Of a stretch of 64,000 nt of DNA, positions 1 through 62,524 are shown piece by piece. Source of the stretch: Escherichia phage vB_EcoM_ASO2A; the sequence record MZ726793.1. One strand, given 5' to 3'. The translations under genes and the position numbers were made by a program. The notes under the pieces were generated by a model. It had not been told where the DNA came from and ran no database searches. It saw nothing but the letters and a program-made list of their open reading frames with translations. Position 1 is the stretch's first letter; every line of letters begins with the position of its first letter.

Positions 1-26
1 GGGCGCACCAAGCGCCCTTTCTTTTT
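1..26 (+). terminator. Rho-independent terminator, conserved GGGCGCAC-N-AAGCGCCC hairpin (copy 1 of 3)
   Basis: gggcgcaccaagcgccc followed by tttcttttt; same hairpin recurs at 3984 and 5122. Confidence 0.65.
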
Positions 27-47
27 ACATGTAGAGGATAAACAAAA

Positions 48-233
48 ATGACTTTAAACGAGCTTAAAACAGCCTATAACGCAACATTAAAAATAGCCGT
101 GCGTTACCGTGACGAATACGGTTTTATTGCGCAGGGTGTGATCCTGGGCTTTTCTGACGATGGTTTGATCTATGTTGATGCACATCACAACAAGGTTAAA
201 CCTGAAAACGTCATTAGCATAAAATATCTTTAA
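48..233 (+). CDS. hypothetical protein (61 aa)
   Basis: ATG ORF directly after terminator, purine-rich leader. Confidence 0.55.
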   Translation: MTLNELKTAYNATLKIAVRYRDEYGFIAQGVILGFSDDGLIYVDAHHNKVKPENVISIKYL

Positions 234-239
234 AAACGC

Positions 240-298
240 TTGACACCATAACCAGGTAGGATAAGATGTATCACATAGGGCGGGAATAGTTCCCGACC
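240..298 (+). promoter_or_regulatory. promoter + 5'-terminal GC hairpin cassette, copy 1
   Basis: -35 TTGACA 240-245, -10 TAAGAT 262-267, cacaTAGGGCGGGAAtagTTCCCGaCC from 276. Confidence 0.6.
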
Positions 299-318
299 AC
301 ATAAAAGAGAAAAACATT

Positions 319-531
319 ATGACCACTATCACAACAAAACAAGAAAAAATTATTACAGACATTGCCGCAGTAGCCGCTATTGCTATTATCGGTACCTACT
401 ATGACACCGCGCGTCCTTCCTCCTTGCATGAGATCGCCGCCGTTGCATCAGTTGGCGTGCTGTTTTACGTTGGTAAACGTTATTTATCACCAATGATTAA
501 CAAGCTGACACCGTGGAAAAATAAAGGTTGA
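319..531 (+). CDS. small membrane protein, two hydrophobic segments (70 aa)
   Basis: leader agagaaaaacattATG; AAVAAIAIIG and AAVASVGVLFYVG segments. Confidence 0.6.
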   Translation: MTTITTKQEKIITDIAAVAAIAIIGTYYDTARPSSLHEIAAVASVGVLFYVGKRYLSPMINKLTPWKNKG

Positions 532-587
532 TCCTGTTTTACATTGTGTTATAGTTATCGTGTAGGGCGGCAATGGTGCCGCGCCCC
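528..587 (+). promoter_or_regulatory. promoter + 5' hairpin cassette, copy 2
   Basis: -35 TTGATC 528-533, -10 TATAGT 550-555, gtgTAGGGCGGCAatggTGCCGCgCCC from 563. Confidence 0.5.
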
Positions 588-602
588 TTTGAGGATGCAA
601 TC

Positions 603-887
603 ATGAGTAAAGCTAACACCGTGCTAATGTTTTCCCTGATTAATGATCCCGCTTACTTGTCCAACATGACGCAGGAGGGTAACACATTAACGGCAACATT
701 CACCAATAAGCTTGACCGAGTGATCATCATCTCACTGAAAACAGTTAGTAAAGGCTTTTACTCGTTAGCTTATCATTGGATCACTGATACCGACGAGACA
801 AGCCAGGACTATAGCGCCCCTTTCCCTGAATCAATGGCACGGGAGATCATCGCCGCCGTTGTAAATGATGGTTTGTTTACTGCATAA
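603..887 (+). CDS. hypothetical protein (94 aa)
   Basis: start moved to ATG 603 (leader ...gcaatcATG, downstream of hairpin); track start 573 lies inside the hairpin. Confidence 0.55.
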   Translation: MSKANTVLMFSLINDPAYLSNMTQEGNTLTATFTNKLDRVIIISLKTVSKGFYSLAYHWITDTDETSQDYSAPFPESMAREIIAAVVNDGLFTA

Positions 888-904
888 ATAATTTAGAAAA
901 AGGC

Positions 905-961
905 TTGCAATCATTTTGAGATAGTGTATATTTAATTCATAGGGCGGCGGGAATAGTTCCC
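905..961 (+). promoter_or_regulatory. promoter + 5' hairpin cassette, copy 3
   Basis: -35 TTGCAA 905-910, -10 TATATT 927-932, tcaTAGGGCGGCGGGAAtagTTCCC from 940. Confidence 0.5.
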
Positions 962-984
962 AAAGCAAACGAGAGGATTACACG

Positions 985-1104
985 ATGAGCAAGTACACAG
1001 TAGAATACACGGTAGAGAATCCGGTAGTATCCGAAGGTAAAAAGATGACATTTGCCATCAGTATAATCGCTTTCGTTGTCACTATCTTATCAATCATCTT
1101 ATAA
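985..1104 (+). CDS. 39-aa peptide with C-terminal transmembrane segment
   Basis: not in track (<60 aa); gagaggattacacgATG; MSKYTVEYTVENPVVSEGKKMTFAISIIAFVVTILSIIL. Confidence 0.45.
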   Translation: MSKYTVEYTVENPVVSEGKKMTFAISIIAFVVTILSIIL

Positions 1105-1114
1105 GGTGCACACC

Positions 1115-1276
1115 ATGAAAATAACAGACATTATCAAAGAGATCGCCCTTGCCGCTGGCGTTGAAGTCGAGGAAGTGATCGCGCTCAATCTTACAGAAAA
1201 CGATCTGCGCAACTATGAAGCGGAAAGCGTGAAAGCAAGCGGCGCGGTCCTGGCATATAATCCGGCTAACAAATAG
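1115..1276 (+). CDS. hypothetical protein (53 aa)
   Basis: taaggtgcacaccATG; track ORF 1076 trimmed to this ATG. Confidence 0.5.
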   Translation: MKITDIIKEIALAAGVEVEEVIALNLTENDLRNYEAESVKASGAVLAYNPANK

Positions 1277-1277
1277 T

Positions 1278-1332
1278 TTGACAAGCTGAATCAACCTGAT
1301 AAGATGTATCACATAGGGGCGACAAGCGCCCC
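1278..1332 (+). promoter_or_regulatory. promoter + 5' hairpin cassette, copy 4
   Basis: -35 TTGACA 1278-1283, -10 TAAGAT 1300-1305, cacaTAGGGGCGacaaGCGCCCC from 1314. Confidence 0.6.
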
Positions 1333-1356
1333 GCCTAACAGAAGAGAGAAAAAATC

Positions 1357-1635
1357 ATGACCATCGTTAAATTAACAACCGAAGAAATGAAAACAATGTT
1401 AACCACTAATTTACAAAATTGGAAAATTGGTGTTGACGTTGAAACAGTGTGCAAGTTGAACGACAAACTAACACCGGACGACATTGAAACGATCATCCGT
1501 GCAGATTTCTATGATGCTTTATACGATGATTCCACAGTCCTTGAAACGATGTTGGATAACGCTTGGATCAATCCCGATTTGGCGGCTTATGGTCATCTTG
1601 CCTTTGAAGCCATCCATAATGTTTATAATCGTTAA
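1357..1635 (+). CDS. hypothetical protein (92 aa)
   Basis: leader agaagagagaaaaaatcATG. Confidence 0.6.
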   Translation: MTIVKLTTEEMKTMLTTNLQNWKIGVDVETVCKLNDKLTPDDIETIIRADFYDALYDDSTVLETMLDNAWINPDLAAYGHLAFEAIHNVYNR

Positions 1636-1645
1636 GGGGGATAAC

Positions 1646-1756
1646 ATGAATCCGAAAGATATGCAAGCATGGAAAGGGTACGACGATCTAAGCGCCTTGC
1701 GCAATAAGTCAAGCCGTAACTTTAGACGGTTGGAAGCAAAGAAAAAGAAAAAATAG
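1646..1756 (+). CDS. hypothetical basic peptide (36 aa)
   Basis: taagggggataacATG; ends in KKKKK. Confidence 0.4.
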   Translation: MNPKDMQAWKGYDDLSALRNKSSRNFRRLEAKKKKK

Positions 1757-1757
1757 T

Positions 1758-1813
1758 TTGACAAGTCCGCGTAGTCTGGTAATATGTATCTTGTAGGGCG
1801 GCAATGGTGCCGC
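1758..1813 (+). promoter_or_regulatory. promoter + 5' hairpin cassette, copy 5
   Basis: -35 TTGACA 1758-1763, -10 TAATAT 1780-1785, cttgTAGGGCGGCAatggTGCCGC from 1794. Confidence 0.6.
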
Positions 1814-1834
1814 TCACAAGAAGAGAGAAAAATC

Positions 1835-2119
1835 ATGAAAATTACAAAAAGCCTAACTAATTATGCAGCACGTCGCGGATTATGCTTAACCGTTGAAAAC
1901 TTAGGGAAAGAAGACTTTTTGTGTTTTTGGGAGCTTGAGAATGATTGCGAGTGGATGTTTTCTTATTCTATCTGCGAAGATCAAAACGGTTGTTTGTTAA
2001 CCTGGCGCGGTAATATCTATTTACCGGAAGAAATTAAAGAAGAGTTACCAGGTACGATCATGACAGAGAGACAGCTTAAAGAAGTGATCAATTTTGTAGG
2101 GCAAAACATTAAAAAATAA
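1835..2119 (+). CDS. hypothetical protein (94 aa)
   Basis: leader agaagagagaaaaatcATG; track start 1784 overlaps promoter/hairpin. Confidence 0.6.
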   Translation: MKITKSLTNYAARRGLCLTVENLGKEDFLCFWELENDCEWMFSYSICEDQNGCLLTWRGNIYLPEEIKEELPGTIMTERQLKEVINFVGQNIKK

Positions 2120-2120
2120 T

Positions 2121-2183
2121 TTGACAGTAGGCAAACAACGTAGTAAAGTTTATTACATAGAGCGGCGGAATGGTCCACCGCTC
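2121..2183 (+). promoter_or_regulatory. promoter + 5' hairpin cassette, copy 6
   Basis: -35 TTGACA 2121-2126, -10 TAAAGT 2144-2149, tacaTAGAGCGGcGGAatggTCCaCCGCTC from 2158. Confidence 0.55.
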
Positions 2184-2204
2184 ACAACAGAAGAGAAACA
2201 AATC

Positions 2205-2375
2205 ATGATCCCGACTATGTTTTATGTATCGCGCAAAGGTCACAATATTTTTTGGTCTGAAGATTTAAATGAAGCTATGACGTTTGCCCATGATCGTGTT
2301 GCTATCGGTGGCGTTAACATCACTGTAACCGATGAAAACGGCATTGAATACTATAACGGCGACGATGAAGAATAA
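2205..2375 (+). CDS. hypothetical protein (56 aa)
   Basis: leader agaagagaaacaaatcATG. Confidence 0.5.
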   Translation: MIPTMFYVSRKGHNIFWSEDLNEAMTFAHDRVAIGGVNITVTDENGIEYYNGDDEE

Positions 2376-2382
2376 TTAATGA

Positions 2383-2405
2383 GGCGGGGGGAGTATTCCC
2401 CGCCG
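2383..2405 (+). promoter_or_regulatory. GC hairpin of the same type but without an upstream promoter
   Basis: GGCGGGGggagtattCCCCGCC, no U tract, followed by aaagaggtaaatcATG. Confidence 0.4.
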
Positions 2406-2423
2406 TCAATAAAGAGGTAAATC

Positions 2424-2693
2424 ATGAAAATATCATTAGACGTTGCAATCAAGGCCATCGAATCCGGTTACATCCTGGTAAAAGATGATAAGGCTAAAAC
2501 CGTGCACCACGTTAACAAGGAAACAGGCGAAAGCATGATCACATATAAAGCCGCCTACTTTCTCCAATCAGTAGCAGATCCGCGCGTACAACGCCAGGTT
2601 ACAGCGGCTATTGCTAAAAAATTATGTGCTTTACAGGGCACAAGTTTTAACGAGATCGCCCCGTGTTTTGACTGGTCGAGCTTGAAAAAATAA
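2424..2693 (+). CDS. hypothetical protein (89 aa)
   Basis: ATG ORF with purine-rich leader. Confidence 0.6.
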   Translation: MKISLDVAIKAIESGYILVKDDKAKTVHHVNKETGESMITYKAAYFLQSVADPRVQRQVTAAIAKKLCALQGTSFNEIAPCFDWSSLKK

Positions 2694-2694
2694 T

Positions 2695-2756
2695 TTGACA
2701 ACAATTATAAATCGGGTAGAATGTATTTCGTAGGGCGGGGCAATAAGGCAACGCCC
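2695..2756 (+). promoter_or_regulatory. promoter + 5' hairpin cassette, copy 7
   Basis: -35 TTGACA 2695-2700, -10 TAGAAT 2717-2722, ttcgTAGGGCGgggcaataaggcaaCGCCC from 2731. Confidence 0.55.
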
Positions 2757-2774
2757 ATTAATGAGGGTAGAATC

Positions 2775-2879
2775 ATGTTAGAGAAAATTTTCACGGTCGT
2801 AGTAGTGGGCCTGGCGTTATCGGTTGGAGTGGTTGCAACTATGGCTAACATGATCCTATCTTCCCACGGTATTGGATAA
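2775..2879 (+). CDS. 34-aa hydrophobic (transmembrane) peptide
   Basis: not in track; gagggtagaatcATG; MLEKIFTVVVVGLALSVGVVATMANMILSSHGIG. Confidence 0.4.
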   Translation: MLEKIFTVVVVGLALSVGVVATMANMILSSHGIG

Positions 2880-2889
2880 GGTGAATCAA

Positions 2890-3105
2890 ATGATCACGAA
2901 TAAGACAGGTAAAACAGAATTTTTACGCGCCTTGCAGATCGGCAAGCCTGAGATCTGGCATTGCACTAAATCCGCGCATAATGAAATGAAAGATTTTACC
3001 GCTACTTTACAACGTGTTAAAATATCTATCACACAGAAAAAAGCCTTGTTAGTAGTAGAAAACGAGATCCCGCAAACTATTATTATTGTCGAGCGTACAG
3101 CATGA
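2890..3105 (+). CDS. hypothetical protein (71 aa)
   Basis: aaggtgaatcaaATG; track start 2872 is TTG. Confidence 0.5.
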   Translation: MITNKTGKTEFLRALQIGKPEIWHCTKSAHNEMKDFTATLQRVKISITQKKALLVVENEIPQTIIIVERTA

Positions 3106-3488
3106 AAACAGAAATCATTATTGAAATCATCAACGGTTATAAAGAAGCCTTTATTTTTGCTGAATCAGCAAGGGATCATGAAGGTAATTTTATTGATAAC
3201 TTAGACGATTATGATTTTTCTCCTAGCGCGGACGAACGGATCGCCCAGGATGTAACAGCCTTTATTAATGCTAATCTTGCCGCTATCTCTGAGGCAATGA
3301 GCGACGGCGCAACAGCCAACCAGATCGGGAATGATTTACATTTTACCCGTAACGGTCACGGCGCAGGCTTTTGGGATCGCCCTGAAATATACACCACTAA
3401 CACGGCGAACCGCCTAACCAATGCAGCTAAGTTTATGCCGAACGTGTCGGCTTACATTGGTGAAGATAATTTGATTTATATTGAATAA
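3102..3488 (+). CDS. hypothetical protein (128 aa) with TRNGHGAGFWD motif
   Basis: ATGA overlap with upstream stop; I recognise the motif but no function. Confidence 0.6.
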   Translation: MKTEIIIEIINGYKEAFIFAESARDHEGNFIDNLDDYDFSPSADERIAQDVTAFINANLAAISEAMSDGATANQIGNDLHFTRNGHGAGFWDRPEIYTTNTANRLTNAAKFMPNVSAYIGEDNLIYIE

Positions 3489-3494
3489 AAAGTA

Positions 3495-3552
3495 TTGACA
3501 CCGATCCCCAATATGGTACTATTTACCACGTAGGCGGGAAATGGTTTCCCGC
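3495..3552 (+). promoter_or_regulatory. promoter + 5' hairpin cassette, copy 8
   Basis: -35 TTGACA 3495-3500, -10 TACTAT 3517-3522, cacgTAGGCGGGAAAtggTTTCCCGCC from 3531. Confidence 0.6.
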
Positions 3553-3576
3553 CAGGTAATCAAAAAGGTAAATACT

Positions 3577-3966
3577 ATGCGCAACCTGGTTTCTGTTTCT
3601 AACGTTGAAAAATTTCAATCTTTACAGGGTATCGTTAACAACGTAGCGCCTTTTTTAGTCAACGGCTTGATTGCAAAGATGAAAAATAAACATCATGCGG
3701 CATGGTCTGCTTACTGCTTTGATAATGATGAAAAAGCGGCTGAAATGATGCTAAATATGCTGTTAGACAGTGTAGAATCATCTTTACCGGAAAACATCGC
3801 AGAAGAGATCACCTATCGTTATAATATGGCGATCACTTACCAGGAGGTTGCGCAATTTAATATGATGGACGATGACGAACAACAGGATCAGGAAATGTTT
3901 TGGGAGTATGCTGATCGTCAATCGGCTTTTGATGAAAAATTAGCGATGTATTATAACGAATATTAA
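3577..3966 (+). CDS. hypothetical protein (129 aa)
   Basis: aaaaggtaaatactATG; track start 3541 lies inside the hairpin. Confidence 0.6.
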   Translation: MRNLVSVSNVEKFQSLQGIVNNVAPFLVNGLIAKMKNKHHAAWSAYCFDNDEKAAEMMLNMLLDSVESSLPENIAEEITYRYNMAITYQEVAQFNMMDDDEQQDQEMFWEYADRQSAFDEKLAMYYNEY

Positions 3967-3983
3967 TACACGGTAAAAGAAAG

Positions 3984-4006
3984 GGGCGCACTAAGCGCCC
4001 TTTTTT
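3984..4006 (+). terminator. Rho-independent terminator, conserved hairpin copy 2
   Basis: GGGCGCACTAAGCGCCC + tttttt. Confidence 0.75.
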
Positions 4007-4071
4007 GTATTCTTTTTTCACGATGGAAACAACACGTAAAGAATAGGCGTAAAGGTGGCGTAAAACCATCT

Positions 4072-4164
4072 AAAACCGACTGTAACCGCTTAAACAAGGT
4101 AGGAATGATTAATCACCTTACCAGGATGAAAAAGCCGTTATAAAGCTATCTAGAGCGTTTAAAG
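4072..4164 (+). repeat. post-terminator non-coding module, copy 1 (related to 5180-5296)
   Basis: shares aaaaccgac ... taccagg..gccgtta.a.agc.at.tagagcg.ttaaa with copy 2, roughly 60-70 percent identical by eye. Confidence 0.45.
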
Positions 4165-4351
4165 CACATAGGAAATAATTTGCTTTTTATCTTGCCTTTT
4201 ACCCTGCTTTTGATTATTATTATGGAACGGGCGGCACCTGGAAGCAGGGGAAGATAATCACCGGAAGACCCCGCTATATATTGATAGCTAACATCTATCA
4301 AACAACAAAACATCAAAGAGATAAACTATCAAATCTTTACAATCCTACCTA

Positions 4352-4410
4352 TTGACACCGGATCACGCTTACATTATCATTTATCACGTAGGGCGGGAAT
4401 GTTTCCCGCC
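4352..4410 (+). promoter_or_regulatory. promoter + 5' hairpin cassette, copy 9
   Basis: -35 TTGACA 4352-4357, -10 TATCAT 4375-4380, cacgTAGGGCGGGAAtgTTTCCCGCC from 4389. Confidence 0.6.
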
Positions 4411-4428
4411 TGATTTAGGAGTCATATC

Positions 4429-4662
4429 ATGATCGAACAAATTAAAAGCACTAAACCAAATGTTAACGGTAATGTTTCTCACTTTATCGGGGATAATGAA
4501 AGAGGTACACCGTACGCCGCCGTAACCGTTCAACCGAACGGGGATTATTGGTTTACCGTGTACGGATCTTACTCTTTTGGACGTTCGGCACATGATAAGA
4601 TCTTGCAAGTGGTTAAGCCTACTGGGAAGAATATCACAGCAGAAAAATTTTATAAAAAATAA
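4429..4662 (+). CDS. hypothetical protein (77 aa)
   Basis: ttaggagtcatatcATG. Confidence 0.6.
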   Translation: MIEQIKSTKPNVNGNVSHFIGDNERGTPYAAVTVQPNGDYWFTVYGSYSFGRSAHDKILQVVKPTGKNITAEKFYKK

Positions 4663-4663
4663 C

Positions 4664-4723
4664 TTGCTTTATAGCTCCTGTTAACTTATAGTTATTGCGT
4701 AGGGCGAGCAATACAGCAAGCCC
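4664..4723 (+). promoter_or_regulatory. promoter + 5' hairpin cassette, copy 10
   Basis: -35 TTGCTT 4664-4669, -10 TATAGT 4687-4692, tgcgTAGGGCgagcaatacagcaaGCCC from 4700. Confidence 0.5.
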
Positions 4724-4741
4724 ACAAAGAGGAAAATAAAA

Positions 4742-5110
4742 ATGAGCAAATCAGCAATTAAAGCACTTGAAAAAGCACAAGAAGTGATCGCAACGTCAAC
4801 CACTGGCGCAAAGGTTAATCTTGTTGGTTATCTGACAGATGAAACTATCCGTAAAAATTGGCGTAATGCTGATTTACTGGCTTGCTTATTGATTAATAGT
4901 GTCGCTAATGCTTTCCAGTGCGAAACAGCCGAGAGCCTGGAGGAAAACTTGTTTGATAATATGGATCAAGCCATTGAAACCTATATACAATCAAACATGG
5001 ATAGCTGGAACAGTAAAACATGGCCCGACAATTTACGCGATACAACTGATCAACTGATCCGCCTTGCCCTGATGGTTGAACGCGATAACGTTCACAACCG
5101 CACAAAGTAA
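4742..5110 (+). CDS. hypothetical protein (122 aa)
   Basis: aaagaggaaaataaaaATG. Confidence 0.6.
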   Translation: MSKSAIKALEKAQEVIATSTTGAKVNLVGYLTDETIRKNWRNADLLACLLINSVANAFQCETAESLEENLFDNMDQAIETYIQSNMDSWNSKTWPDNLRDTTDQLIRLALMVERDNVHNRTK

Positions 5111-5121
5111 GATTATACAAG

Positions 5122-5147
5122 GGGCGCACTAAGCGCCCTTTCTTTTT
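5122..5147 (+). terminator. Rho-independent terminator, conserved hairpin copy 3
   Basis: GGGCGCACTAAGCGCCC + tttcttttt. Confidence 0.75.
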
Positions 5148-6659
5148 GCCTAAATAATGTTGATAGATTCCGCCTATGGAAAACCGACACAGAACAAAAC
5201 TGAATAAATAGCGGTATCGAGCTAATCAACCATTAAACGAATAACCATACCTCCCAGGGTAACAGGCTGTTAGAGAGCCATTTAGAGCGGTTAAAATCGA
5301 TCAACAACCAACAACAAACCATCAAAAACACCCTTTTACCTCCTTTCTAGTGCAATGATAACCATTATCATCTATCCATGTTTATCTATGCAATATAAGT
5401 GCATAACTATAATGTTGATAATAGTTCGCAACAACTAACTAACCAACAACCTAAAACAATAAGCAAACTAATCATAATCAAAGGAATAATAGCAAGATGA
5501 TTGATAACGACAAACAATCAAACTATGATGAATACTAAGCAAGATAACGATAATACGACAAAACAACCAACTAACGAACAATAACAAACGAAACCATTAA
5601 AATAATAACTATTAGCAAAATAGTGCCTGAATGAAATCATTACAAAACGAATCATTCACAGGATCATCATTAGCACGCTATGCCGGACACATAGCGAGCT
5701 AATAATAAGCCAACTACACCCCAACAATCATAACCATCGGTGATGGTTATTTCTTGTTACTGCGTAGCTTGCAATAATTGCAAGCGTAATACGCTTACAC
5801 TTATTGCGCTGGCTTATTATTAGCATTATATGTAATTACCAAGATCATAACATTAGCGCAATAACAATAATCATTGTGGTAATTACAAGATGAAATCATT
5901 AGCAAGATGAATAATTGCACGTAGCAACATGAGCGAATAGCGACAGGTTGCATAGTGTGCACATAGATGTACACGCAGTGTATAAACATACAAGAAAATA
6001 AAGGCTAATCTTTCGGGGGCGAATACTATCGCGTAGCGATATGTTGAGCATCTTCTCTTAAACGTAAATAAAATCAGAAAATTCTTGATTTATTTTAGTT
6101 TTTATGTTAATAAACGTTTAAATAATAATCATTCTCATATAAATAATAGTCTGCTTGTCATGAGCGGGATCAGTTGACAATGTTCCGTCATATGATGAAG
6201 TTGCCAAACCATTGATAAATAAGTGTTTGTGTGATTTATAATCAAGTGGCCCACCTTGTCGCTATGTTGGCATGAGCCTTGCATAAGTCCTTGAATACGA
6301 ATGATAATTATTCTCATTCTCATGATATTTGGGAATTGTCGCTGCGTGGACCTGACGGCCCGAAAATTCGCGTTAAGCACTTCTTACGTATGCGCCATGA
6401 TTTTTGCCATATGATATTGATTCTATTAGATATTCTTGCCATGATTGCCATGAAACAGGGTGTCCCGAAATAATCTCTCCCCGTAGATATTTTGGGTTAC
6501 TTTTTATACAAGAGTGGGGTGTCAAAAATAATCGGTATATATGGGATAATTGATAGGAATCCCCTATGATAATTCGATTGTAATTCCCTGAGATTGATCG
6601 TATGATGTTGGTGATTGATGATTGCCATGAAAGATGGCTAACGATGAGAGGAGATTATC
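5148..6659. other. 1.5 kb gene-free, repeat- and palindrome-rich region
   Basis: no credible ORF. Plus strand is A+C rich and G poor over about 5280-5720. AGCAAGAT(G/A)A occurs at 5491, 5538, 5901. ATCATTAGCA occurs at 5666, 5895. Palindromes at 5730-5750, 5767-5785, 5782-5796. GATTGCCATGAAA occurs at 6443 and 6620. Confidence 0.6.
5180..5296 (+). repeat. post-terminator non-coding module, copy 2
   Basis: see 4072-4164. Confidence 0.45.
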
Positions 6660-7034
6660 ATGCAAGAGAGTAAAAATGTTCCGTTGAGTAGTGCAACATT
6701 GCTTCGCTTCTATAAAGCATGGATTGCCAACTATCCTGCAATGAATCGCACAACGAGTGGCTTATGTGGTTGTCTGGTGGATTATGTAGATGATTTTGTT
6801 GGTGAGACAACTAGAGAAGAAGATAGAAAATGGCGGGATAGTTTGTTGGACCGTTTGAAATATGAAATGAGGAAACAATTTACATGTGCAGGGCTGGACT
6901 ACAATCTTCCGTTCAATGCAGATTGCATGGATTACCTTTCAGAGTGTATAAACTTGGCGTGTCATACCAACACGTTACGTCTTCAATGGGTGAAAGACAG
7001 AATTGAAGATGCAAATAATGCTTGCATTGAATAA
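6660..7034 (+). CDS. GLC/WVKD paralog family, member 1 (124 aa)
   Basis: SD gagaggag; FYKAW, GLCGC, EMRKQF, LPFN, RLQWVKDR. Confidence 0.7.
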   Translation: MQESKNVPLSSATLLRFYKAWIANYPAMNRTTSGLCGCLVDYVDDFVGETTREEDRKWRDSLLDRLKYEMRKQFTCAGLDYNLPFNADCMDYLSECINLACHTNTLRLQWVKDRIEDANNACIE

Positions 7035-7093
7035 AGATGTTTGTATAATGGTTTGCATACCGCGCATAACAGATAGCCAATGAGGAGATTGAA

Positions 7094-7303
7094 ATGTCAA
7101 ATATGAAAACTGTATCCTTGTATTTAGCTAACACTGATCGTGTGCACACCCTTGCTAACGCAAGTCGTGTACTCGTGCAGTTTCGAAACTTCGCACCGTC
7201 CGTTGTGACAGGTAGTGAAACGTGTGTTATCGATTTCATTAACGAATACTTCCGAGGGAATCCGGTTGGTCGTTATTTCATTAAGGGTCTGAAGGATGCA
7301 TAA
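7094..7303 (+). CDS. hypothetical protein (69 aa)
   Basis: SD tgaggag. Confidence 0.6.
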   Translation: MSNMKTVSLYLANTDRVHTLANASRVLVQFRNFAPSVVTGSETCVIDFINEYFRGNPVGRYFIKGLKDA

Positions 7304-7304
7304 T

Positions 7305-7526
7305 ATGAAACGCATGAAAATTCGTATTGAGAATGATGGTGGTTATAAAGGATTGGCACATGCAAAATTTCCACTTGTGCTGGAAGCTACGGTGGAATAC
7401 AGTGGGCTTGCTCATGTGCGATTCTCGAAGATGATGGAAGTGCAGGAATGGTTTTGGGACGAGATAGATGCACGAGAAGGAGAAGATTATGTTTTCTTTC
7501 CTCACGAATATGAAATTGTCTATTAA
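7305..7526 (+). CDS. MKIR/DYVFF small-protein family, copy 1
   Basis: paralog of 11243-11464 (MKIR., FP.V.EA, DYVFF); start ambiguous between 7296, 7305 and 7314. Confidence 0.55.
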   Translation: MKRMKIRIENDGGYKGLAHAKFPLVLEATVEYSGLAHVRFSKMMEVQEWFWDEIDAREGEDYVFFPHEYEIVY

Positions 7527-7538
7527 AGGTTGTGTGCA

Positions 7539-7778
7539 ATGATCACACCACAGCAAAACGAAGCAGCAATGGATCTTCTTGATAGTTTGTATTTCGATAA
7601 TTGGTATTCTGAATGTGAATGGATGAATATGCAAACTCTGAAAGAGAAGACAAAAGCGTTGATTACAGTAGATCAATTTCTTGCAGAGACGGAAAGAATG
7701 AATTATGATATGGCATCTCGCGCACGACGCGTTTCCATTTTCAATAAAATGTTAGCATTATGGGGAGGTAGAAAATGA
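7539..7778 (+). CDS. hypothetical protein (79 aa)
   Basis: ATG after taaagg; track start 7530 is TTG. Confidence 0.5.
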   Translation: MITPQQNEAAMDLLDSLYFDNWYSECEWMNMQTLKEKTKALITVDQFLAETERMNYDMASRARRVSIFNKMLALWGGRK

Positions 7779-8236
7779 GACAATTCACTATACTGGCAGC
7801 TTATGTGCAATGTGTTCACGATTATGTTAGTGCTCATACAGGTTTGCTGGAAGTTAATAGTAAAATTGAAGGCAATATGGGTACTGTCTATGTGCAACAT
7901 ACTTTATCCAATGTGCCGTTTAAAGTGTTCACTGTTGTAGCTGCCGATTACAATCGTGTAGATGTACGTTTCTTGGATCATAATTTTCGTAACGCACTAG
8001 ATAATATCGAAGATTATCTTCCCGTGAAACCTTTGTCATTTCCACCAAGTCGTGCAAATAATGTAGTGACAAACCTTAATGAAAGGAATGTGGCTATGCA
8101 CAAAAAAGTCCGTCAACTGAAAACGCTGATGGAAATGCAAGAAGAGATTGAAAAAGAACTAAAAGAAGATTTTGGTATGCTTCCAAAAGACGCTTTGAAA
8201 TGGTATGATGAACTAAGAGGAGAAAGTTATGAATAA
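7775..8236 (+). CDS. hypothetical protein (153 aa)
   Basis: SD ggggagg, ATGA overlap. Confidence 0.6.
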   Translation: MRQFTILAAYVQCVHDYVSAHTGLLEVNSKIEGNMGTVYVQHTLSNVPFKVFTVVAADYNRVDVRFLDHNFRNALDNIEDYLPVKPLSFPPSRANNVVTNLNERNVAMHKKVRQLKTLMEMQEEIEKELKEDFGMLPKDALKWYDELRGESYE

Positions 8237-16257: not shown

Positions 16258-16286
16258 GAGAATACAGCAATGGTTTAGGAGTGGTT

Positions 16287-16958
16287 ATGAAAAAGTTTGT
16301 TGTTTACAGTCGTCTTTCTAAACAGAAAAAAGGTGAGGCACAATATGGTATGGAGAGCCAAGAGAACGATATCCGTTACTTCTTAGACTCTGTACCTGAT
16401 GCGGAAGTTATTGGTCAATTTTCTGAATACTATTCGGGTAAGGGCGATTGGAAGCAACGTAAGGAACTGGTTAAAGCGGTTGAAATGTGTAAAGCTACCG
16501 GAGCAACTTTATTGGTAGCTAAAGTTGACCGCTTGGGTCGTAACAACGCCTCCGTAGCAACTCTTCTAGAAATGATCGATGTTAAGATAGCCATCATGCC
16601 AGACGCAGATAAAATGGTTATACAGCTTCTGTCTGTTCTGGCTGAACAAGAAGTTAGAGGTATTGCTGATCGTATTAAAAAGGGTCTTGCTGTAGCAAAA
16701 AGCAAAGGTGTTTTATTAGGCAGTGCTAATCCTAAAACTGCCGCTGCACGTAGAAAAGGAAAAATGGAATACAACTCTGTTAAAGCAGACGCTTTTGCAG
16801 AGACATTCCGTGAACGTTTGGAGATCCTTAGAGATTTAAATACACCTTACAAAACTATTGCTGAAAAATTCAATAGTAAGAAAATAGCAACAGCACGTGG
16901 TGGTAAATGGGATGCTAAAACTGTTTCTCGTTTGTGTGCCAGACTGAACATTAAATAG
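16287..16958 (+). CDS. small serine recombinase (resolvase/invertase family, 223 aa)
   Basis: SD aggag then ATG 16287. VYSRLSKQ (catalytic Ser region), LLVAKVDRLGRN, EQEVRGIADRIKKGL; C-terminal HTH-like TIAEKFN...GGKWDAKTVSRL. Confidence 0.85.
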   Translation: MKKFVVYSRLSKQKKGEAQYGMESQENDIRYFLDSVPDAEVIGQFSEYYSGKGDWKQRKELVKAVEMCKATGATLLVAKVDRLGRNNASVATLLEMIDVKIAIMPDADKMVIQLLSVLAEQEVRGIADRIKKGLAVAKSKGVLLGSANPKTAAARRKGKMEYNSVKADAFAETFRERLEILRDLNTPYKTIAEKFNSKKIATARGGKWDAKTVSRLCARLNIK

Positions 16959-62473: not shown

Positions 62474-62503
62474 TTGACAACCAATAGTAAAATGTAGTAT
62501 AGT
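62474..62503 (+). promoter_or_regulatory. tRNA-operon promoter P3
   Basis: aaaaCTATTGACAA, 18 nt, TATAGT 62498-62503. Confidence 0.6.
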
Positions 62504-62524
62504 AAAGATGTAGGGCGTTCTTGG

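Follow-up and report, generated by a model that had tools for sequence, protein, structure and literature searches.

The first 5 kb of a stretch of DNA from Escherichia phage vB_EcoM_ASO2A (sequence record MZ726793.1; the stretch, at its full 64,000 nucleotides, is referred to below as the window) carries ten copies, c1 to c10, of a cassette of about 80 bp, in which a host-type promoter is followed by a GC hairpin near the predicted mRNA start and then by a purine-rich leader. All ten lie on the + strand between 240 and 4741, upstream of small early genes. The window belongs to a Phapecoctavirus (phAPEC8-like, subfamily Stephanstirmvirinae), its position 1 being position 1 of phAPEC8, and the region is 93-97% identical to Phapecoctavirus genomes, among them those of phAPEC8, ESCO37, tuntematon and Schickermooser, which are virulent myoviruses of about 150 kb. 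The cassettes sit in an early array of small open reading frames (ORFs) that are labelled hypothetical in all annotations; nine of the ten ORFs tested matched PHROG families, eight of these being of unknown function. The array extends upstream of the window, with further copies at 143.7-147.7 kb of phAPEC8, and relatives hold about 16-22 cassettes in an array of roughly 11 kb. On balance the repeats are best regarded, with moderate confidence, as modular early-expression cassettes in which the leader hairpin would stabilise or insulate the mRNA and the repeated sequences would double as linkers for recombination.

The order of the unit was established by reading positions 1-5400 and lining up the ten sites, and runs from an A-rich tract through the -35 box, a spacer of 16-17 nt, a -10 box of the form TAnnnT and a further 7-8 nt ending in a pyrimidine-purine (Y-R) step to the core TAGGGCGG, the hairpin, the leader and the ATG (Table 1). 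The -35 hexamer is TTGACA in seven copies, and nine of the ten sigma-70-like promoters were found by an independent promoter scan, scoring 9-11 of 12; the -35 box of c10 is weak (3 of 6). The core is exact in six of the ten copies and differs by one base or by a 1-nt shift in the other four, and the hairpin ends 15-24 nt before the ATG, adjoining the ribosome-binding region. An initial annotation of the window had reported ten promoter-plus-hairpin copies, all of which were found where it placed them and on the + strand, with the spacer of 16-17 nt and the gap of 7-8 nt that it described. Its -10 consensus, TAnnAT, was too narrow, and the leader ending that it gave as (A/T)TC-ATG occurs as ATC-ATG in six of eleven copies. 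An eleventh hairpin, said to lack a promoter, was also recovered (h11); it follows immediately on the stop codon at 2373-2375, with the next ATG 15 nt downstream, it is conserved in relatives, and no credible promoter was found upstream of it.

The arrangement is far from random. A regular expression for the composite pattern (TTG..., -10 box, 7-8 nt, core), run on both strands of the window, gave nine matches on the + strand, none on the - strand and none elsewhere in the 64 kb, compared with a mean of 0.04 and a maximum of 1 in 100 shuffles. A motif scan of IMG/VR found multi-copy arrays confined to contigs of ~97-153 kb resembling this phage group; single matches elsewhere are, by a rough estimate, about as numerous as expected by chance.

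Two peculiarities of the layout concern the coding sequences on either side of the promoter and hairpin. At 1274-1283, 1754-1763, 2117-2126 and 2691-2700 the stop codon of the upstream gene lies 1 nt before the -35 box (AAAAAATAG or TAA, T, TTGACA), and C-terminal Lys codons therefore double as the A-tract of the promoter, several ORFs ending in ...KK. At 573 and 3541 of the window, and at 2073 of a related locus (L001), the loop of the hairpin (AATGG) contains an ATG that shares its reading frame with the true start codon. Such a loop ATG is used as the start codon in Schickermooser_00276 and in the ESCO37 homologue, where it has probably been mis-called; phAPEC8 uses the downstream ATG.

Table 1. 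Cassettes and associated features of the window (hairpin, start-site and terminator positions are predictions)
Feature	Position	Strand	-35 box	-10 box	Core	Hairpin	ATG	Remarks
c1	240-318	+	TTGACA 240-245	TAAGAT 262-267	TAGGGCGG 276-283	279-298	319	Predicted transcription start A275; leader runs to ATG; covariance-model score 36.9 bits
c2	528-602	+	TTGATC 528-533	TATAGT 550-555, TG-extended	563-570	565-585, one bulge	603	Extra ATG at 573 inside hairpin loop
c3	905-984	+	TTGCAA 905-910	TATATT 927-932	940-947	949-961, weaker, 5 bp	985	
c4	1278-1356	+	TTGACA from 1278	TAAGAT 1300-1305	Variant TAGGGGCG 1314-1321	1316-1332 (GGGGCG-acaag-CGCCCC)	1357	
c5	1758-1834	+	TTGACA from 1758	TAATAT 1780-1785	1794-1801	1796-1815, one G·U pair included	1835	
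c6	2121-2204	+	TTGACA from 2121	TAAAGT 2144-2149	Variant TAGAGCGG 2158-2165	2160-2183, 1x1 C·A internal loop	2205	
c7	2695-2774	+	TTGACA from 2695	TAGAAT 2717-2722	2731-2738	2733-2756, 2x2 internal loop	2775	
c8	3495-3576	+	TTGACA from 3495	TACTAT 3517-3522	Variant TAGGCGGG 3531-3538	3533-3553, 9 bp	3577	Covariance-model score 34.0 bits
c9	4352-4428	+	TTGACA from 4352	TATCAT 4375-4380	4389-4396	4391-4411, 9 bp	4429	Covariance-model score 34.6 bits
c10	4664-4741	+	TTGCTT 4664-4669	TATAGT 4687-4692	Variant TAGGGCGA 4700-4707	4702-4723, internal loop	4742	
h11	2380-2408	+				GGCGGGGGG-agtatt-CCCCGCC	2424	Promoter-less hairpin; -19 kcal/mol; covariance-model score 14.4 bits
Intrinsic terminator	1-25	+				GGGCGCACCAAGCGCCC plus T-tract		Closes preceding part of array
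Intrinsic terminator	3978-4006	+						Ends c1-c8 block; same module as 5119-5144
Intrinsic terminator	5119-5144	+						Ends c9-c10 block
Small serine recombinase gene	16281-16958	+						225 aa
Related promoter and core	62474-62514	+	TTGACA, spacer 18	TATAGT, then 7 nt	TGTAGG	None		tRNA-Gly follows from 62515

Pairing and geometry of the hairpin

All ten copies fold into a GC hairpin of 5-9 bp, with energies of -7.8 to -15.9 kcal/mol. Set against shuffled sequences, seven of the ten have a folding z <= -3 and c9 has a z of -2.6, but c2 (z -0.34) and c3 (z -0.93) are indistinguishable from shuffles by energy alone. A scan of positions 1-8000 against Rfam at E <= 1 returned only a chance-level match to the L2 leader (18.8 bits, the gathering score being 37.8). 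A covariance model was built from 14 hairpins of relatives in a single stem register, since an alignment of all types made with MAFFT mixes two registers. The model does not pick up c7 and c10, whose hairpins have internal loops, and it gives c2 and c4 low scores. On the + strand of the window it has matches at E < 0.05 only between 270 and 4415, and the one other match at that threshold is a reverse-strand palindromic echo of c9.

Across 22 related loci the model gave 249 matches at E <= 1, the best 150 of which were aligned for covariation tests, yielding 86 distinct sequences. Standard pairs occupy 94.4% of cells in these sequences, compared with 77.5% in shuffles, and the covariation score of 0.436 (0.162 when shuffled) was reached by none of 500 shuffles. 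The pairing signal collapses in controls with slid partners, and six of the nine pairs have changed on both sides. A covariance-model search of relatives had been suggested in the initial annotation, and the covariation found supports pairing. Comparisons at orthologous positions are more telling than such alignment-wide counts. The gene behind c6 has three different apical stems on one stem base in different phages; a GAGCGG/GGGCGG toggle opposite a fixed U of CCGCUC gives either A-U or G·U, two C-to-U changes yield G·U pairs and one change breaks its pair.

The position of the hairpin is conserved as well. In 72 of 96 distinct cassettes across relatives, pairing starts 11-13 nt past the -10 box, which bears out the fixed distance from that box that had been proposed for the ten copies, and the commonest loops are ATGG (25), TGG (16), TAG (14) and ATAG (8). 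The same layout of promoter, about 10 nt, GC hairpin and purine leader is found in the rV5-like Vequintavirus phages, which lack the TAGGG core and whose stems (GGCGGGAA.., GGGGCAA.., GGGGAG..) are unrelated in sequence. The persistence of the layout with unrelated stems, taken with the fixed distance from the -10 box, indicates that it is geometry and pairing, and not sequence, that are deeply conserved.

This last point bears on the suggestion that the inverted repeat, with its TAGGGCGG flank and AAURG apex, is an operator for a phage regulator that shuts off the early genes, acting either through a repressor that forms a roadblock at +1 to +25 or through an RNA-binding translational repressor. 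In the subfamily Stephanstirmvirinae conservation is indeed higher in the 5' flank and the apical AAU(A/G)G than in mid-stem, the element lies right next to the ribosome-binding site, and the copies all belong to a single temporal class of genes. However, the rV5-like relatives keep the geometry and neither the TAGGG flank nor the loop sequence, which argues for a generic structural role, and the conserved flank is equally well explained by concerted evolution and recombination among the copies. The 5' arm is always G-rich, at odds with a symmetric dimer site, and no candidate regulator was identified in the analysis. An operator is unlikely.

Homology end-points and the re-assortment of modules

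Homology between related genomes tends to break off at the cassettes. When the window was compared with 19 related loci, 15 of which gave matches, 39 of the 96 internal homology end-points fell inside cassettes, which make up 17.6% of the region, and most of the remainder fell at cassette edges or terminators, though the end-points are not phylogenetically independent of one another. The clearest junction is provided by four relatives without the ORF at 4429-4662, in which a chimeric cassette combines the promoter of c9 with the hairpin and leader of c10, the switch lying exactly within the shared CGTAGGGCG. The gene behind c7 retains its hairpin and leader although at least four different promoters occur upstream of them, and the gene behind c5 has a different promoter and hairpin in Justusliebigvirus. 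The re-assortment of these units implies that a promoter moves together with the gene upstream of it and a hairpin-leader with the gene that follows, exchange occurring at the conserved core. Recombination and gene shuffling, to judge from these comparisons of related genomes, would be the best-supported function of the element, and this is an aspect that the initial annotation overlooked.

A precedent exists in the promoter-early stem-loop (PeSL) cassettes described in the T4-like phages RB49/phi1, PST/T4 and nt-1/KVP40 (Arbiol et al. 2010, PMC2839356; Comeau et al. 2014, PMC4122927), for which both terminator activity and the formation of mini-circles have been demonstrated (PMC2839356, PMC4122927). 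It could be argued on this basis that the repeats are kept mainly as recombination substrates, that is as selfish or evolvability linkers for the shuffling of ORFans, and that the hairpin has no role at the level of RNA. The enrichment of breakpoints in cassettes, the exact junction at the core, the independent re-assortment of promoters and hairpins upstream of the same gene and the mini-circles of the PeSL precedent are all in keeping with such a view. It is nevertheless quite unlikely, as pairing has been kept across many stem sequences and in a second subfamily that shares no sequence, whereas homology linkers need no pairing, and the spacing from the -10 box is fixed, as is that from the ribosome-binding site.

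A more specialised proposal is that the core YR-TAGGGCGG and the AAURG hairpin together form the site of a dedicated phage factor, which would carry out an attC-like recombination mobilising promoter/ORFan cassettes or else act as a regulator turning off the early class. It touches on the only precise junction examined, which lies exactly at the core, the conservation of the apex within the subfamily and the presence of a gene for a serine recombinase 12 kb away. These facts are equally well explained by short-homology recombination and shared ancestry, and the proposal must be considered improbable. The recombinase, a small protein with a Pfam Resolvase N-terminal domain (E = 5e-18), is the only one in the window, and its counterpart in phAPEC8 is annotated as a putative site-specific recombinase. 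Action of this enzyme on the hairpins was considered and rejected as unsupported, given that the sequence of the repeats varies and that the junction examined is at the edge of the stem and not at its centre; no link between the enzyme and the cassettes was found.

The predicted 5' end and the proposed role of the hairpin

By the usual spacing of sigma-70 promoters, transcription would start at the R of the Y-R step that closes the 7-8 nt beyond the -10 box, just before TAGGGCGG. The predicted transcript would then begin R-U-A-G-G-G... and in most copies would leave 3-4 nt unpaired ahead of the stem, the figure for c3 being about 10. The initial annotation had put the hairpin at the extreme 5' end of each mRNA; it does lie near the predicted 5' end, but is preceded by these few unpaired nucleotides. 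An internal control is offered by a related promoter and core towards the end of the window (Table 1), which stands 3-5 nt before the mature 5' end of a tRNA-Gly, and the acceptor stem takes the place of the cassette hairpin; the position of its TGTAGG core fits a start a few nucleotides upstream of GGGCG.

If the favoured reading of modular early-expression cassettes is followed through, host RNA polymerase would fire from each near-consensus sigma-70 promoter right after infection, and the resulting mRNA would present a hairpin starting 3-4 nt past the predicted start, followed by an unstructured purine-rich leader and a ribosome-binding site. RNase E is slowed by a base-paired 5' end, and the ompA and papA mRNAs are stabilised by 5' stem-loops (reviewed in PMC3997798). 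The leader hairpin may in the same way shield the 5' end of the mRNA from attack by RppH and by 5'-end-dependent RNase E, and in transcripts reading through from upstream cassettes it may form an internal obstacle or insulator ahead of each ribosome-binding site, which would account for the promoter-less h11. The repeated core and flanks would at the same time act as short homology linkers, at which recombination could swap, delete and insert promoter and ORF modules as described for PeSL. A role as a site for RNase III was rejected, because that enzyme needs longer stems than the 5-9 bp present here.

There are several considerations that weigh against this reading. The predicted single-stranded 5' end of 3-4 nt is borderline for keeping out RppH and RNase E, c3 has a weak hairpin, with a stable stem of 5 bp about 10 nt from the predicted start, and h11 is a hairpin that persists without a promoter. 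A literature search gave no transcriptome or start-site map for Stephanstirmvirinae, Vequintavirinae or phi92. The want of phylogenetic independence among the BLAST end-points has already been mentioned. The hairpin variants fall into a few types recurring among paralogous cassettes, and gene conversion could mimic compensatory evolution. The variation between copies had initially been described as compensatory, and whilst pairing is kept, much of the variation consists of a few types swapped between paralogous cassettes, and not of many independent double substitutions.

It is also difficult to say on which nucleic acid selection has acted. In the covariance-model alignment G·U pairs outnumber A·C or C·A by 43 to 12, an excess that favours structure on the transcribed sense strand but that is drawn from a model-fitted alignment of related sequences. 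A strand-symmetric stem finder gave Watson-Crick pairs at 700 of 712 positions, with two G·U against five A·C, and with stems so nearly all Watson-Crick an RNA structure and a DNA-level inverted repeat are not cleanly separated. A first comparison of sense and antisense folding energies gave a difference of -1.2 kcal/mol (p = 9e-9), biased by selection on sense stability, and a symmetric repeat of it gave -0.76 kcal/mol (p = 0.005), there being almost no internal non-Watson-Crick pairs on which to discriminate.

Intrinsic terminators are present in the region but are not formed by the cassette hairpins. The 10 nt after each cassette hairpin contain 0-3 T, so there is no T-tract and these are not intrinsic terminators, and a terminator scan of the region flagged only 1-17, 3978-4006 and 5119-5141, which upholds the original statement that no U tract follows the hairpins. 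The three true terminators are near-identical (AAGGGGCGCAC[T/C]AAGCGCCCTTT...) and delimit blocks of cassettes; it follows that terminators too are re-used as repeated modules. An attenuating role has nonetheless to be weighed, such as has been proposed for PeSL stem-loops, in which the hairpins would stop or damp read-through from upstream and leave each small gene to depend chiefly on its own promoter. One PeSL stem-loop of RB49/phi1 cut lacZ expression as much as rrnB T1 did (PMC2839356), no terminators separate neighbouring cassettes and only three occur in 5 kb, and h11 directly follows a stop codon; the annotators of phage Paula labelled the hairpins as terminators, but on the opposite strand. 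The difficulty is that each hairpin is downstream of its own predicted start, so a terminator there would abort its own transcript equally. No + strand copy is followed by a T-tract, and the geometry differs from that of PeSL, where most stem-loops are within or upstream of the promoter. Attenuation or insulation as the principal function is a doubtful alternative.

The fixed position just past the start site, the G-rich core after a TA-containing start and the terminators at the ends of the blocks might equally bring to mind a cis-acting promoter-proximal RNA element, either a put-like antitermination signal or a sigma-dependent pause at which a Q-like factor is loaded, with which early transcripts would read through downstream terminators. 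Such an element can be given very little credence. There is a single hairpin of 5-9 bp per cassette, compared with the two stems and ~70 nt of put RNAs, the Rfam scan gave no relevant match at E <= 1, and no Q-like or N-like gene was identified. Furthermore, each gene has its own promoter and there are about three terminators, so that ~20 antiterminators per array would be without obvious purpose.

Comparison with known systems and earlier annotation

Although the initial annotation did not recognise the element, it has a close analogue in the PeSL cassettes (PMC2839356, PMC4122927), and 20-mers within it had already been marked as "PHIRE" promoters in the phAPEC8 record. In both systems an early promoter close to the sigma-70 consensus, preceded by AT-rich sequence (nine of the ten here), is adjoined by a G(n)-loop-C(n) stem-loop, which all ten cassettes have, and then by a Shine-Dalgarno sequence and an ATG. 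PeSL occur in tens of copies before small ORFans in plastic regions, as do the cassettes, of which 4.7 kb hold 10 and the rest of the 64 kb holds none; the elements are where close relatives differ by indels and replacements, as with 39 of the 96 end-points and the CGTAGGGCG junction here; and "half" elements exist that are comparable to h11. The differences are of lineage and of detail. PeSL were defined in T4-like myoviruses, and the present cassettes belong to Stephanstirmvirinae and, by geometry, to Vequintavirinae also. PeSL stem-loops are found at five positions, mostly within or upstream of the promoter, whereas here the position is fixed and lies after the predicted start; there is an additional conserved core, YR-TAGGGCGG, and the absence of a T-tract makes a terminator role unlikely. 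The element is thus ordinary in kind, a PeSL-like variant in another phage lineage, most likely resembling PeSL in its part in genome evolution but with a hairpin that acts in the leader RNA rather than as a terminator.

The hairpin in the leader of phage T7 gene 10 is a 5'-terminal stabiliser that follows a phage RNA polymerase promoter, and with the stabilising stem-loops of the ompA and papA 5' untranslated regions (Emory, Bouvet and Belasco 1992, cited via PMC3997798) it shares with the cassettes a stable hairpin a few nucleotides from the 5' end, here a predicted one, ahead of an accessible ribosome-binding site, and protection against decay that depends on the 5' end is the effect to be expected. 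In the ompA type structure matters over sequence, and in the cassettes pairing is kept across different stems, the unrelated rV5-like ones included. Those examples are single and experimentally validated, whereas the cassettes form a multi-copy family with a predicted start and a predicted overhang of 3-4 nt, and the promoter is of the sigma-70 type and not, as for T7 gene 10, that of a phage RNA polymerase. A T7-class promoter was itself considered for the cassettes (TCACATAGGG resembles the T7 CACTATAGGG) and rejected, as the upstream boxes vary in the manner of sigma-70 hexamers, the likeness is confined to two copies and the parts of phAPEC8 inspected (1-50 and 100-147.7 kb) have no annotated phage RNA polymerase.

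The morons of lambdoid phages, promoter-gene-terminator units (Hendrix et al. 2000, discussed in PMC2839356), are likewise self-contained, independently transcribed units of accessory genes that are variably present between related phages. However, morons have no shared flanking repeat, are usually single and end in real terminators, and the cassettes are tandem, co-oriented and joined by one conserved linker. The array may also be compared with integrons, an analogy that the PeSL authors make too, since small promoter-dependent ORF cassettes are separated in both by imperfect inverted repeats conserved in structure over sequence; but at attC sites a tyrosine integrase acts on single-stranded DNA, which it recombines at a defined core, and here each unit has its own promoter, no link to an integrase was found and the one junction examined is at the stem edge within short homology. 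The promoters of the N4 virion RNA polymerase provide another case in which a virulent coliphage has a DNA hairpin tied to its early promoters. There the promoter consists of the hairpin itself, with a 3-nt loop, a start about 11 nt downstream and no sigma-70 boxes; in the cassettes the loops are of 3-6 nt. A promoter of this type was rejected, given that canonical -35 and -10 boxes precede every hairpin and that no RNA polymerase is annotated in phAPEC8 at 1-50 or 100-147.7 kb.

The element has been seen by annotators without being interpreted and is undescribed for this phage group. The GenBank record of phAPEC8 has 20-mers spanning core and hairpin marked "putative promoter determined with PHIRE" and the sigma-70 part marked "host dependent promoter", and in that of phage Paula cassette hairpins are marked as reverse-strand terminators (locus L007 2064-2088, 5387-5410, 7957-7980 and others), probably an artefact of the terminator predictor, as there is no T-tract on either strand. 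The rV5 and Certrevirus papers describe the early promoters only as sigma-70-like and clustered in the small-ORF region. Were the reading of modular expression cassettes correct, PeSL-type cassettes would not be peculiar to T4-like phages, and at least two further subfamilies of large virulent phages of enterobacteria, Stephanstirmvirinae and Vequintavirinae, would have a convergent or shared design that would explain the mosaic early ORFan arrays of these therapy-relevant phages. Annotation would be improved where hairpins are at present given as PHIRE promoters or reverse-strand terminators or are overrun by mis-called start codons. The arrays would, in addition, offer expression design a natural library in which strong sigma-70 promoters come joined to 5' hairpin/leader modules, and the fixed post-start hairpin would be a clean case for 5'-end protection, or for an obstacle to RNase E, on phage early mRNAs.

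Amongst the GenBank sequences that match the region are 19 records named as "Campylobacter phage" (MG0656xx), the best of which, MG065650 (phage B15), is about 95% identical over 81%, and others named as Acinetobacter, Pseudomonas or Klebsiella phage; these host labels look doubtful. There are two ORF-free stretches in this part of the window, at 4010-4350 and at about 5150-7000, the second of which is AT-rich (GC 0.33-0.38) with scattered short repeats, is unannotated in phAPEC8 and other relatives and has an equivalent "non-coding" box in the rV5 paper. Outside the early array, at about 45379 on the - strand, a consensus promoter (TTGACT-16-TATAAT) is followed at a cassette-like distance by a hairpin, TGGGAGGA-ggtgag-TCCTCCCA, and an AAGGAGA ribosome-binding site, and another promoter-hairpin unit of this kind occurs on the minus strand of phAPEC8 at about 121.9 kb.

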